From Escherichia coli (lineage in GTDB: Bacteria; Pseudomonadota; Gammaproteobacteria; Enterobacterales; Enterobacteriaceae): 64,000 bases of DNA. Each line of letters opens with the position of its first letter. Within the stretch, counting starts at the first letter, position 1. Made by a program: the position numbers. Location of the stretch: the NCBI RefSeq assembly GCF_036507355.1, contig NZ_AP027877.1. One strand, given 5' to 3'. Below are positions 3,001 through 9,000 of the stretch, piece after piece.

Positions 3001-6000
3001 GCATCGTTGGTGGTTTTCAGCTGGGAGCCGTTAACGGCATCAGTGCTGCCAGCCGTCAGGTCGGCATCTTTAACGTTGGTGATTTTGCTGGTGGCTTCTG
3101 TGCCGTGAGCTGCCGTGAATACACCATTGTCCTTATCCCATTTCAGCGCATCTTCACCAAGGTTAGTCACCGTCTCAGTCAGGTTAGAGATGTTGGTGGT
3201 GTTAGTGGCAATATTGGAAGTGTTAGTGGCGATATTGGTGGTATTCGTCGCCACGGCATCGTTGGTGGTTTTCAGCTGAGAGCCGTTAACGGCATCGGTG
3301 CTGTCAGCCGTCAGGTCGGCATCTTTAACGTTGGTGATTTTGCTGGTGGCCTCGGTGCCGTGAGCTGCCGTGAAGACACCATTGTCCTTATCCCATTTCA
3401 GCGCATCCTCACCAAGATTAGTCACCGTCTCAGTCAGGTTAGAGATGTTGGTGGTGTTAGTGGCAATATTGGAAGTGTTGTTGGCGATATTGGTGGTATT
3501 CGTCGCCACAGCATCGTTGGTGGTTTTCAGCTGAGAGCCGTTAACGGCATCGGTGCTGCCAGCCGTCAGGTCGGCATCTTTAACGTTGGTGATTTTGCTG
3601 GTGGTCTCGGTGCCGTGCGCGGCGCTGAATGCTTTCGCTGTATCATTCCACAGCAGGGCATCATCCTGAAGGTCACCAACGGAATCCGTCAAATTGGTGA
3701 TATTGGTGGTGTTGGTGGCAATACTTGCCGTATTCGTGGCAATGTTGCTGGTATTAGTAGCGATATTGGCGGTATTGGTCTCGACATCGTCATTGGTAGC
3801 TTGCAGTTGGGAACCGTTAACCGCATCCTTACTGGAGGCTGAAATCGTGCCATCCGCAACATCGGTGATTACGCTGGCAGTTGGGCTACTAGTACCATGA
3901 GCAGCGCTGTATTTGCCTTTGGTTTGGTCCCATTGCAGGGTGTTTTCATCAAGTACAGCGAGCGCAGCCCCTACGTTATTTTTGCTACCATTTTTTAAAT
4001 TGTAGGTTGGTGCTGTAACAGTACCGTCATCAACATCTACTGCAGCCCCTCCACCAAGCCTTTTTGCTACCGAGTCGCTAATGGCATAAAGCTGTGAACC
4101 ATTAATGGCATCGTAACTGTCAGACTTGATCGCGCCATTTTTCACATTAACGATCTTGCGTTTTAATGAACTATTGCCGACAGAGACGGTATTGTCTAAA
4201 TCCGCAATGGAATCTGCGCCCAGCGCGACAGAGTTAATACCGTTGGCACTGCTATTACTACCAAGCGCAAGACTCTTATCACCAGTTGCATTACTGGCTG
4301 TGCCTAAGGCAATGGTGTTTAAGCCTCTCGACTGGCTACCATTACCCAGAGCGATGGCATCCACGCCATCAGCTTTGTTGCCCTGGCCTATGGCGATTGC
4401 ATTATCTGCCAGAGCCTGGCTGCCATTTCCTAATGCGATAGTATTGACTTTATCGGCAAGGCTTCCGAACCCCATTGCCATGCTATTAGTCCCTTTTGCC
4501 TTCGCATTATTGCCAATAGCAGTTGCATTTTCAGCGGCTTCGGTCTCAGCACCCATCGCAATAGCGTTTAAGTGATTGTCTGCCAAATGCGAGGCTGTCA
4601 GTACCGCTAGCTACACTGCTACGCCCCAGGGCAATTGCGTTTTCTGCGGATGCGACGCTACTTGCACCCAGCGCCATTGAATACGCTTTTGACGCATTGG
4701 CGGTGTCGCCAAGAGCAATACTCATAATCTCAGTAGCTTTAGCTGCGTTGCCCAGCGCAATGGCTTTCTCGCCTGCCGCACTACTGCTTCTTCCCACTGC
4801 AATGGCATTCAGACCAGCAGCATTGGATTTATCCCCTTGCGCGATCGAATAATCACCACCCGAATTCGCGTATCGCCCAAGTGCCATCGAAAATTGACCC
4901 ACTGAACTTGACGATGCGCCCATAGCGATACTTCGTTGACCGGTTGAGACGGCATTAACCCCGAATGCCATTGAAGCCGGACCAATTGCATGGGTCATGG
5001 CGCCAATAGCGGAACTCCAGGTTCCTTCAGCGAAAGCTTTATAACCCACTGCAGTACTGGCACCATTACCATCTGTAAAAGCATTTGCCTGTGAATCCTG
5101 GCCTATAGCAACCCAGCCAGATCCTGTGCCAACAGGTGTACCAGGTTCATTACCTGTTGCCAGCGCTCCAAACGACGACAACATTCCACCCGCAACTAGG
5201 GCAGAAATTAACAGCTTACTGCGACCAGATTTCTTACCACGGCTCTTTGCTGTTTCACTGGCAACGCTATAACTGCCCGTCGCCGGATTCCAGATGACTT
5301 TAAATATTTTGTTCATTATTGATGTTCTCTATTCCTTGATATAAGCGCAGAAGCTGCATTTATTTTTTGTTTTTTCGCTGCCGAGTTTCAGCAGATTGAA
5401 CAGTGACGAACTGGAGATTGGCCATATTGATGGACAACTTCAGATACTTCAGGTTATTAGGCGAAACGCCTTTTAATGTCTTGCCATTGACCAGGCATTA
5501 ATTGCAGAGTGGAGTTCAGAGCGGTATTGAAAAGTAATTGTTGCCACTTCGCCAGAGCTTTGGCATCGGTGGGCCTTTCATTGCCCCATGTAGCATGAAA
5601 ACCAATATTTGATACGGGAACGCTTAATAGGTTGACCAGCGAAATACGAATAACGCTGCCGTTTTCAACTGCATCAATAGCCAGCACCCGACCCGCCAAA
5701 CCGACAGAGCCGTTATTTAAAATGAAGTATTGTGTTTGTGCTGGGTTAAATTCTGTGAAGACAAATTCATCCTGCTTTTCTTTAACCCCCTTCACCACAC
5801 TAGCAAGCGTTTTGGTACTACTTATGATGGCAGTTTGCTGTTTTTCAAATAGTTCTATCTTGCGTTTATCTTGTTCTTGTTGTTTTTCAAGTTGCTCTAT
5901 TTTACTTTTTTGCAACTCTTGCTGTTTGGAAAGATCGTCGATTAGTTTTGCTTTTCCAATATAGTCACACCCTGTCAACATGCAGAGTGGCGATATCATT

Positions 6001-9000
6001 AACACGCTTAATAGTATCTTTTTTAGATTCATAGGATGAATTCCTTTTCATAATCCTGATGCGTTGAAAATCACTTTACAATCATTTGTTTTATGAATGA
6101 TCAAGCAAAATAAATTCACGGTGAAAATTTATAATATTTTTAATTGGTCGTTACTGTGAATGTGTTATTCAATGCAGAAATATTTTAGTTTGTTGCCGAT
6201 TATTATATTAATCGCGCGGATTCTAATGATTGGTGTCAATCGATGTCAAATTTTTAAAGGGATAAGATGAGAAAAAGTCAAAGGATAATATTTGTATGGT
6301 GAATGTTTTATAGTGATAAGGACAGTTTGAGTTGGAAAATATAAATAAATAGTTATGATATAAGCATGTTTATGCTGATATTTATAGCTGTAAATTATAT
6401 ATTAATTTTTATTGCGTAGCATATTTTCAGATTTTAACCTGCTAAAATTATTCAGGTGAGTGGGAAGAATTGAAAATATAATGTTAATAGATTTCGATAT
6501 CTGAAATATGCTCCTGCATATGCCAGCAGGAGCGAATAAAAATGAGGAAACTTTAGTTGTATTGACCAGTAGGGGACTTAAAACGCGGTCTTAGAGAATC
6601 CAGTCATCTCTTCCAGGCCCATTTCGCGGCCCAGCGCGGTCATTGGGTGAACAACCACCAGTCCGCGAACACTTTTCTTCAGCTTGCCCATATCAGCCTG
6701 CTCTTTTTTGGTAATTGCGCGCTGAAACGGCATCTTCATCAGCTTCTGTGCTTCTTTACTCAGTTTCTGGCTGTGAACTTCACGCAGGCGGGCAATTTCT
6801 GCTTCCAGCGTGGCTTTCTCTTTTTCCAGCTCGGCATATTTGTCTGCGGCTTCAACCAGCGACAGATCGGCCTGCTGGTGGCGGATGGCGTCCAGACGAT
6901 CGCTGAGACGTTTGATTTCGTTTTTTTCGACTTCTTTCATGTGATGGCTTCTGATAAAGATAAATTTATAGCCCCTAGTATGCGCGACCAGGTGCTTTGT
7001 TCACAACTGATGACATTGCAATAGTTCCGCAACGTAATCATTAATATGCTTAAAAACTACGCAATTTATTGATTAATTAAGAAATCTATAGAAAAAAGAT
7101 AATAAACAGAAGCGGATGATTATTGAGGATTCAGCACGTTTTCCTTAATGTCATCTTTACCGGGAACCTAAACTAAAATTGGCGGCCGCGCATTCCCGGC
7201 GCGGGGTAATACGGAGATATCATCATGGGCAAATTAGGTGAAAACGTTCCGCTTCTTATCGATAAAGCCGTAGATTTCATGGCATCAAGCCAGGCGTTCC
7301 GGGAGTATCTGAAAAAACTTCCTCCCCGTAACGCGATTCCGTCCGGAATACCCGATGAAAGCGTGCCGTTATATCTACAACGTCTGGAGTATTATCGTCG
7401 GCTTTATCGGCCGAAGCAGGTAGAGGGACAGTAAGCAGACGTTGCTTACTTTTGGAAGGCTTTTTTTAAGCTGATTCTGGAAATCAGCTCTGTCAGTGAA
7501 AGGACCATTGTTGATCGCACAGCCTGTTGATAGCGCTGAATTTGCATTGCATACAAACTGGAGTCTGCTGGTTCAAACTGTGGCGGCGGTGGTAACGCCG
7601 CCACGCAGTGCAGTTCACCAAAGGGTCCAAGGATCTCGTCGTCGGTAAAGGCGTACTCGTTGCCGTCGTGATTTAGTTCTTCACGCAATGCCATCAGCAG
7701 CTCCGCATCTTCGTATTCCTGGCGGTTAATGACGCCCAACCCGTAAATGAGTTTTAAACGCACAGAAAGATCGCCCAGCGGACCATCGCCGTCGAGTAAC
7801 GGTTCTACAGCATATTTCACCGCGTAATCGTCTTTGCGGAATACCTGAAGCACCAGAAGATTTACCGCCTCGGTCAGGAGCTCGACGGCGGTGATCAGAA
7901 AGCTTCGCACGGTTTTGCCAGCATTCAGACGCTCAAGCACACGGTTTTCAAAGGCCTGGGTTTGTTCCATTGTTGCCTGCATATCTGACAATCTGTTATT
8001 CGGGCGCAGGGTGTCCTGCGCCTGGTCCACCATTATTGCATTGCTTTATAAGCGGTTACCGCCTCAGATACAACCTCGCTGTTGGCATCAAGCCCGGAAA
8101 TCTGTGCCAGCGCCGCCTGCGGACCTTTGTCGGCGATCAGTGCTGCCAGTTCCTGAGCCTGTGGATCATCTTCACTGCGGAAGTGCATTGCAGCGGCAAT
8201 TCCCTGAATCAGATTTTTGTACGGGAGGCCGTATTCCAGCGTACCGAGTAGTGGCTTGATCAGACGGTCGCCTGCGCTCAGTTTACGCAGCGGCTGACGG
8301 CCTACGCGCTCTACATCATCTTTCAGATACGGGTTCTCAAAACGACCGAGAATTTTCTGGATGTACGCCGCATGCTTGTCAGCGTCAAAGCCGTAATGCT
8401 TGATCAGTACCGCGCCACTTTCTTCCATCGCACCTTTTACCACCGCGCGGATTTTCTCGTCGAGAATAGCGTCACGAATGGTCTGATGACCGGCCAGTTT
8501 TCCGAGGTACGCGGTTATAGCATGACCCGTGTTCAGGGTGAAGAGTTTACGTTCGACAAATGCCATCAGGTTGTCGGTTAACTCCATGCCTGGGATGTTC
8601 GGCAGTGCGCCTTTGAACTGAGTTTTATCGACAATCCATTCGCTGAAGGTTTCTACCGTCACTTCCAGCGGATCGTTAGTTGCAGAAGCCGAAGGCGGTA
8701 CGATGCGGTCAACGGCGGAATCGACAAAGCCAACGTGTTCTTCTACCCACGCTTTGGCGTCTTCCGGCAGGGCGTTCATCACATGGCCTTTCAGTTGCGT
8801 GGTGCCGCGGACCATGTTTTCACAAGCGATGATGTTCAGCGGAGATTCATTACCTTGTTCTTTACGTTTCACCAGCCCTTTGGCGATAGCCGGAGCAATA
8901 CGTTCCAGCACTACCGGGCCAACGGCGGTAGTGACTAAATCAACCTGAGCAATGAGATCAACGACATCATCACCAATGCTGCTGACAGCATTGACGCCAG

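Follow-up and report, generated by a model that had tools for sequence, protein, structure and literature searches.

The adhesin and lipoprotein genes between the mtl and lld operons

The window, a stretch of 64,000 nucleotides from the Escherichia coli contig NZ_AP027877.1, carries a trimeric autotransporter adhesin gene and, directly upstream of it on the same strand, a lipoprotein gene, both lying between the mtl and lld operons. The adhesin (198..5316, minus strand, start codon at 5316) is the positional ortholog of SadA, UpaG and EhaG, and the Pfam families ESPR, YadA_head (as repeats), YadA_stalk and YadA_anchor are all detected in it. The gene order lldP - adhesin - lipoprotein gene (sadB, see below) - yibL - yibT - mtlRDA is common to the window and to four other E. 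coli genomes; a comparison of synteny was among the checks proposed in an earlier note on this DNA. Grin et al. (J Biol Chem 2014, PMC3953254) describe sadBA at this position, between mtl/yibL and lldP, for Salmonella, Shigella and Escherichia.

The lipoprotein gene is present in the ORF list of the window as an ATG-to-stop frame of 191 aa at 5457..6032 (minus strand), as the earlier note had reported. The N-terminus of the product, MNLKKILLSVLMISPLCMLTGC, contains a signal peptide and the lipobox L-T-G-C. The residues around the lipidation site are ...CMLTG-C22-D23-Y24, and the Asp at position +2 is predicted to retain the protein in the inner membrane. G21, C22, D23 and Y24 are invariant in all 17 of the 17 homologs aligned. 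The Q/E/K-rich coiled coil that had been noticed downstream of the lipobox is indeed present (about residues 24-85). Its length is about 60 residues rather than the 40 first estimated, judging by the continuous helix at 22-85 in the structural model and by the nine heptads of the SadB coiled coil (PMC3953254), with which the heptad pattern KIEQLEKQQ.../KIELFEKQQ... of the window ORF aligns. The C-terminal part of the same frame encodes the first roughly two-thirds of a beta-sandwich and ends with five residues (KRRFA) that are out of frame.

The two open frames, both on the minus strand, are separated by 140 bp (5317..5456), as had been described. This distance is correct for the ORFs of the window, but its larger part, 5360..5456, is really the 3' remnant of sadB and not intergenic DNA. 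The true spacer is 43 bp long (5317..5359, minus strand) and contains a Shine-Dalgarno-like AAGGAA/GAGAA before the adhesin ATG. Four other E. coli genomes have the same distance of 43 bp in their annotation, and the sadB-sadA gap in Salmonella is 44 bp (PMC3953254). A separate terminator and promoter between the two genes, envisaged in the earlier note as an argument against their partnership, did not appear: a consensus scan found no promoter-like or terminator-like site between them on the minus (coding) strand. Folding of the 181-nt RNA of the sadB remnant and spacer was unremarkable (z-score -1.47) and gave no hairpin followed by a U-tract, by which an internal terminator or structured element in the spacer is rejected. 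When 1..12000 was scanned with Rfam, neither the leader nor the spacer matched any RNA family.

The AT-rich leader between yibL and sadB is 545 bp long, as claimed earlier (6033..6577, minus strand), and has a G+C content of 29%, compared with 50% for the whole window. An inverted repeat at its yibL-proximal end (6510..6533, GCTCCTGC-N8-GCAGGAGC), whose hairpin is kept in four of five alleles, is probably the terminator of yibL. In a promoter scan, the best sigma-70-like candidate to drive the sadB-adhesin operon was TTGACA-18-TAGAAT, with 11 of 12 matches, at 6220..6249 (minus strand), some 190 nt ahead of the sadB start codon. When the leaders of five alleles are aligned, this candidate falls in the best conserved block, ATTTGACATcGATTgAcAcc.ATCATTAgAATCC, of an otherwise diverged sequence. 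Its consensus match and spacing suggest that it may function as a promoter, and consensus scans and gene spacing together indicate that sadB and the adhesin are most likely co-transcribed from the leader.

Identity of the lipoprotein and its linkage to the adhesin

Neither the window ORF nor the intact allele had a match above threshold in Pfam or NCBIfam, and apart from DUF3251 the matches were coiled-coil noise. The intact allele reached 12.7 bits (E 0.13) with Pfam DUF3251, below the 23-bit gathering cut-off, and the window ORF had no match to this family. Because the profile libraries gave nothing above threshold, the identification rests on sequence and fold comparison with the PDB. This comparison reveals a function, contrary to the earlier statement that none was evident from the sequence. 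The window ORF matches the crystal structure of Salmonella enterica SadB (STM3690; PDB 4C47) over residues 23-186, with 51% identity over 164 aa (E 3.3e-55), and the intact allele of the same lineage aligns full-length, over residues 23-227, which are all 205 mature residues (E 9.2e-71). Structure prediction, which had been proposed for the C-terminal domain, gave for the intact allele an AF2 model in which the helix is followed by beta-strands, and Foldseek returned SadB as the best match to this model (E 1.5e-19). The second match was the paralog YajI (2JWY; E 1.2e-4, 16% identity). In RefSeq the product is called either 'SadB/YajI family lipoprotein' or 'DUF3251 domain-containing protein'. 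The lipoprotein gene of the window is thus the E. coli ortholog of Salmonella sadB, beyond mere analogy: it shares with its counterpart the lipobox with Asp at +2, the coiled coil and beta-sandwich, the mtl/yibL-lld position and the spacing of 43-44 bp to a SadA-type adhesin.

SadB is a trimeric inner-membrane lipoprotein, co-expression of which raises the surface display and protease resistance of SadA (PMC3953254). Grin et al. (JBC 2014, online December 2013) described the sadBA operon together with its E. coli orthologs, and reported conservation of the gene in Escherichia and its loss, along with the adhesin, in K-12; according to the same work, SadB enhances display and is not an absolute requirement for it (PMC3953254). 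SadB homologs are exclusive to the Enterobacterales. YajI of E. coli (Pfam DUF3251) is a paralogous lipoprotein with the same beta-sandwich topology, but it is only about 14-16% identical, has no autotransporter neighbor and no known function; its relationship to the SadB ortholog is visible at the level of the fold only. The only other dedicated helper described beside a trimeric autotransporter, TpgA of Acinetobacter sp. Tol 5 (the partner of AtaA), is unrelated. It consists of BamE-like and OmpA-like peptidoglycan-binding domains and acts at the outer membrane and peptidoglycan rather than at the inner membrane. The adhesin of the window shares its domain plan (ESPR, YadA head, stalk, anchor) with UpaG of UPEC CFT073 and Nissle and EhaG of EHEC, and RefSeq labels the genes adjoining sadB in other strains upaG or ehaG. 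It differs from these in its head and stalk alleles and in being interrupted by a deletion of 11 bp.

Among 5,426 complete E. coli genomes, 4,149 contain sadB, and in 4,139 of these it abuts the 5' end of the adhesin gene, adjacency being defined as at least 80% coverage of a probe that runs from the 3' end of sadB across the spacer into the start of the adhesin gene. Both genes are absent from K-12. The earlier note had reasoned that occurrence of the lipoprotein in genomes lacking the adhesin would speak against a partner role; these counts do not refute that role. The lipoprotein could still be a mere neighbor whose function has nothing to do with the adhesin, as in the case of its paralog YajI, which has no linkage to any autotransporter. 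In addition, sadB is sometimes inactivated beside an intact adhesin, by an IS1 insertion in strain ET650 and by the frameshift of the 191-aa allele. This explanation is very improbable in view of the almost constant adjacency and joint absence of the two genes, the short, terminator-free spacer and the direct experimental effects of SadB on SadA (PMC3953254). The proposal that the gene encodes a dedicated accessory lipoprotein of the adjoining trimeric autotransporter, by likeness to SadB and SadA, is supported by sequence, fold, locus and linkage.

Two 11-bp deletions in the operon

Intact sadB alleles are 684 bp long, encode 227 aa and leave a gap of 43 bp before the adhesin. When the window copy is aligned pairwise with NZ_CP135595 and NZ_CP024273, 11 bp (GACATTAATCT) prove to be missing from it at the junction between 5481 and 5480. 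The position of the junction is ambiguous over 5473..5481 (minus strand), the kept copy of an 8-bp direct repeat, GACATTAA, and the deletion between these repeats accounts for both the 191-aa length of the product and the 140-bp gap behind it. The out-of-frame 3' remnant (5360..5456, minus strand; 684 - 11 = 673 bp back from 6032) would encode the conserved ...LTLKGVSPNNLKYLKLSINMANLQFD...KNKK tail. The frameshift falls after residue 186 and removes 41 residues, including two terminal beta-strands (most of 183-191, and 201-206, in the model of the intact allele) and a basic tail. The lost segment contains 18 nearly invariant positions within L188-F212, among the best conserved stretches of the family. 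Whereas intact alleles encode the complete C-terminal sandwich of eight strands, that of the window ORF is incomplete, which makes this copy a truncated (pseudo)allele of a SadB family member.

The adhesin is interrupted by a deletion of its own. Compared with NZ_CP024273 and four near-identical contigs (L005-L007 and L009), it lacks 11 bp (GCCAGTGCAGC) between 4570 and 4569; NZ_CP135595, with its different head allele, was uninformative for this alignment, and NZ_CP024273 and L005 were used instead. The gene is split into ORFs of 256 aa (4546..5316) and 1462 aa (198..4586), and the signal peptide is separated from the stalk and membrane anchor. In L005 all the domains are found in a single reading frame of 1709 aa. 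The four contigs differ from the window by 0-1 substitutions and contain the sadB deletion, but not the adhesin deletion. As near-identical contigs combine the sadB deletion with an intact adhesin, sadB broke before the adhesin in this lineage.

None of the 5,426 complete genomes of E. coli in RefSeq has the sadB deletion. It is present in about 10 other public contigs, which come from assemblies of isolates, from Logan read assemblies and from metagenomes, and a public protein record matches the 191-aa product exactly (BED20350.1). Because the same protein and DNA turn up unchanged in public assemblies that are independent of one another, the sadB deletion is a real allele, and its origin as an artefact is rejected. 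The adhesin deletion was found neither in the 5,426 complete genomes nor in any other sequence examined. It is seen only in the window, being absent even from the four near-identical contigs, and has no flanking microhomology, as might be expected if one or both frameshifts had arisen during sequencing, assembly or laboratory passage and the operon were intact in the natural strain. The exact recurrence of the sadB deletion in independent material makes such an explanation improbable, and the loss of 11 bp in a non-homopolymer sequence is atypical of base-calling error. The probability that the adhesin deletion is an artefact is low.

A beta-sandwich seldom folds when it lacks terminal strands that lie within a sheet, as beta-8 does in SadB, between beta-1 and beta-5 (PMC3953254 for the strand order). 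As two terminal, nearly invariant strands are removed, the truncated product is most likely misfolded and inactive. Alternatively, the 191-aa product might still be a working helper, whose coiled-coil trimer and residual C-domain bind the adhesin and set its register, the deletion being a tolerated length variant. The coiled coil and lipid anchor of SadB are untouched, the truncated allele recurs in about 10 contigs examined (isolates and metagenomes) with an intact adhesin ORF where this could be assessed (1709 aa in L005), and it occurs once, in contig L008, beside a different adhesin head allele. This alternative is nevertheless unlikely: the family's most conserved stretch and two of the eight sandwich strands are lost, the allele is missing from the complete genomes, and the adhesin was subsequently frameshifted in the same lineage.

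The truncated protein retains the signal peptide, the lipobox, the whole coiled coil and some 100 C-domain residues, and a trimeric stump of this kind could keep some activity, which would speak against full inactivation. The persistence of truncated sadB with an intact adhesin ORF in several samples is compatible with SadB being dispensable.

A described helper system, probably in decay

The locus is very probably a sadBA-type operon between mtl/yibL and lld, with the sadB ortholog as its first gene and in the role of helper to the adhesin, and with the system decaying in the window. The intact 227-aa product would be a trimeric inner-membrane lipoprotein, anchored by the lipidated Cys22 and retained through the Asp at +2, and its coiled coil of about nine heptads would project three beta-sandwich domains into the periplasm. 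SadB is thought to bind three nascent autotransporter chains and to aid their register and folding, which would lead to more adhesin of better integrity on the surface. For SadB and SadA of Salmonella the mechanism has been demonstrated (PMC3953254), with the helper function shown also by heterologous expression; for the E. coli protein we infer the mechanism by orthology. The leader promoter would drive both genes, and its silencing by H-NS is probable; UpaG has been reported to be repressed by H-NS. A slipped-strand deletion of 11 bp between the GACATTAA repeats shifted the sadB frame, and the adhesin later acquired its own 11-bp frameshift.

The window copy differs from Salmonella SadB in being frameshifted after residue 186 and lacking the last 41 residues, and its partner adhesin is frameshifted as well. 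As sadB is truncated and the adhesin frameshifted, the partnership is probably out of operation in this strain. What is seen here is a system that has already been described, now in decay and probably inactive in this strain.

These results matter mostly for annotation. The proper label for the lipoprotein gene is sadB pseudogene or truncated sadB allele, and that for the adhesin is frameshifted pseudogene of the UpaG/EhaG type; neither gene should be treated as a new accessory factor. The results also call for caution, in that a small deletion can lie behind an odd gene length and an odd intergenic distance.

The 191-aa lineage could be regarded as a natural experiment, in which either the sandwich is dispensable and the stump suffices, or the adhesin comes under relaxed selection once its helper is lost, and the operon begins to decay step by step. 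We consider this unlikely. Loss of the adhesin after truncation of sadB is seen in one genome only, that of the window, and the adhesin ORF is intact in several isolates. SadB dependence of display has so far been shown for the Salmonella pair only, and strains with truncated sadB and an intact adhesin (for example GCA_905398635.1) are ready material for examining the dependence of UpaG/EhaG display on SadB in E. coli. If the suggestion is true, either outcome would be new information on how strictly SadA-type adhesins need their helper in E. coli.

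Identity and locus of the lipoprotein

The lipoprotein open reading frame (ORF) reported in the earlier note is exactly as described: it lies on the minus strand, from the ATG at 6032 to the stop at 5457, and encodes 191 aa. It begins with a typical lipoprotein signal, MNLKKILLSVLMISPLCMLTG followed by C, with Asp at +2, and continues into a Q/E/K-rich heptad region. The coiled coil noticed there is present but had been estimated too short, as it spans about 60 residues (model helix 22-85). A sequence search of the PDB returned a single strong match, 4C47 "inner membrane lipoprotein" (E 3.3e-55), which is Salmonella SadB and aligns with residues 23-186 with 0 gaps and 51% identity. 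The AlphaFold2 model of the intact allele (mean pLDDT 68.6) consists of a helix at 22-85 and subsequent beta-strands. Its best Foldseek match is SadB (E 1.5e-19, 55% identity) and its second is the paralog YajI, 2JWY (E 1.2e-4). The profile libraries did not identify sadB: Pfam DUF3251 scored 12.7 bits against the intact protein, below the cut-off of 23, and did not match the window ORF, and the NCBIfam search of both returned only noise. Other E. coli genomes carry sadB in RefSeq under the name "SadB/YajI family lipoprotein" or "DUF3251 domain-containing protein".

Along the window the genes run adhesin, sadB, yibL, yibT, mtlR, mtlD, mtlA, yibI and yibH, with lldP just past the window's start on the adhesin side, and 4 other E. 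coli genomes are annotated with this order. This is the position, between the mtl and lld operons, given for the sadBA operon by Grin et al. (J Biol Chem 2014, PMC3953254). According to these authors, SadB is a trimeric inner-membrane lipoprotein of nine coiled-coil heptads and three Ig-like beta-sandwich domains, and SadA co-expressed with it is displayed on the surface in larger amounts and resists protease better. In a survey of 2026, 106 SadB homologs were counted, all in Enterobacterales, and SadB and TpgA were listed as the sole helpers of trimeric autotransporters described. The earlier note was right to propose a dedicated accessory lipoprotein: the 4C47 match, fold, locus and linkage to the adhesin identify the gene as sadB. 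The idea is not new, the sadB operon and its E. coli orthologs being already in Grin et al. 2014 (online December 2013).

In the same neighbourhood, the longest ORF over mtlD (8033..9499, 488 aa) exceeds the usual mtlD of 382 aa, starting about 106 codons further upstream. In translation, this extension (9180-9500) repeats the motif PSPHGEG and resembles translated REP/BIME palindromic elements of the mtlA-mtlD spacer. The length of this spacer varies from 94 to 419 bp between strains in annotated loci.

Linkage to the adhesin and expression signals

In nearly all genomes that carry it, sadB lies beside the adhesin, which speaks against the possibility, considered in the earlier note, that it occurs in genomes lacking the adhesin. 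Among 5,426 complete genomes, 4,149 carry sadB (blastn), 4,144 the adhesin head (megablast) and 4,139 the junction between the two, detected as at least 80% coverage, in a single place, of a 362-bp probe running from the 3' end of sadB through the spacer into the 5' end of the adhesin gene. In K-12 MG1655, lldP directly follows yibL and both genes are missing; Grin et al. (PMC3953254) report that K-12 lost them together. No promoter-like or terminator-like site was found on the coding strand between sadB and the adhesin, and folding of the spacer RNA showed nothing notable (z -1.47). The linkage, the absence of internal promoter-like or terminator-like sites and the plain spacer support a putative operon of sadB and the adhesin.

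The AT-rich leader of 545 bp was also described accurately. It extends from the sadB ATG to the yibL stop (6033..6577) and has 29% G+C versus 50% for the whole window, which fits the repression of upaG by H-NS reported in a secondary citation. All minus-strand promoter-like sites lie within it, the best candidate being TTGACA-18-TAGAAT at 6249-6220 on the minus strand (11/12 matches). In an alignment of five leader alleles, this block contains two overlapping TTGACA hexamers and a TAGAAT or TAAAAT -10, kept in all five, and is the most conserved part of the leader, the rest being only ~75% conserved. The block at 6220-6249 may be the operon promoter or a site bound by a regulator. An inverted repeat just after yibL (6510-6533), conserved in four of the five leader alleles, is probably the yibL terminator. 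No Rfam families were found in window 1..12000.

Truncation of sadB

The other genomes inspected all have an intact sadB of 684 bp (227 aa), separated from the adhesin ATG by 43 bp; the corresponding Salmonella spacer is 44 bp (Grin et al., PMC3953254). Alignment with the intact alleles shows that 11 bp, GACATTAATCT, are missing from the window gene between 5481 and 5480. Because the missing bases sit between two copies of GACATTAA, the loss bears the signature of a putative slipped-strand deletion. Through the resulting frameshift, KRRFA and a stop take the place of residues 187-227. The gap of 140 bp before the adhesin start codon at 5316 had been measured correctly; owing to the frameshift, this "intergenic region" is composed of 97 bp of out-of-frame sadB (5360..5456, minus strand) and the true 43-bp spacer (5317..5359, minus strand).

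In the lost segment, which begins NLTLKGVSPNNLKYLKLSINMANLQFD, 18 positions are nearly invariant across an alignment of 17 homologous sequences from Escherichia, Shigella, Salmonella and Pseudocitrobacter. It corresponds to the last two sandwich strands (model positions 183-191 and 201-206) and aligns gap-free with the C-terminus of the crystallised SadB chain. We infer that the truncated product has no functional folded C-domain.

The adhesin lesion and the order of the two deletions

Pfam finds the ESPR, YadA head repeats, stalk motifs and YadA anchor of the adhesin, split across two ORFs, 4546..5316 and 198..4586. Alignment with NZ_CP024273, the closest head allele, revealed a second 11-bp deletion, GCCAGTGCAGC, between 4570 and 4569, which has the same length as that in sadB but no flanking repeat or microhomology. 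The signal peptide and some of the head remain in the upstream fragment (256 aa), and the downstream ORF (1462 aa) has the stalk and anchor without a signal peptide. The stalk also contains a 255-bp tandem repeat (2842-3617; about 2.6-3 copies, 85-96% matches) encoding repeated protein units. Such repeats are the likely source of the length variation between adhesin alleles, which range from 1549 to 1778 aa among the annotated genomes examined.

Searches with 80-nt probes found neither deletion junction in the 5,426 complete RefSeq E. coli genomes, every match carrying the 11 extra bases. The exact 191-aa protein is nevertheless public (BED20350.1, "membrane protein [Escherichia coli]"), and about 10 contigs read, from isolate assemblies, read-archive assemblies and metagenomes, encode it. 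Four of these, L005, L006, L007 and L009, match the window over as much as 13 kb with 0-1 substitutions and have the sadB deletion without that in the adhesin; in L005 the adhesin is intact, at 1709 aa. The recurrence of the sadB deletion, and its presence in these contigs without the second lesion, make it a circulating natural allele that is older than the adhesin lesion. In the metagenomic contig L008 (ENA ERZ1310673), the identical truncated sadB adjoins a different head allele, with 182 mismatches plus indels relative to window 4760-5300. Recombination within the adhesin, later than the sadB deletion, may have produced this pairing, or the metagenome assembly may be chimeric. The adhesin lesion is either private to the window's genome or an artefact of that genome's sequence.

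Over window 6500-31000 (24.5 kb), identity to the closest of the 5,426 complete RefSeq genomes reaches only 99.0-99.1%, and these genomes therefore represent the source lineage poorly; near-identical sequence is present in draft and read-archive assemblies.

What is specific to this window is the truncated sadB allele together with a frameshifted adhesin, and since both genes are frameshifted, the system probably does not work in this strain. In strain ET650 (NZ_CP100936.1, 6001-7027), an IS1 insertion disrupts sadB, removing its 5' half, beside an adhesin of 1674 aa annotated as intact. ET650 is a second, independent case of loss of the helper before loss of the adhesin. Helper dependence in E. 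coli could be tested in strains whose adhesin is intact but whose sadB is truncated.
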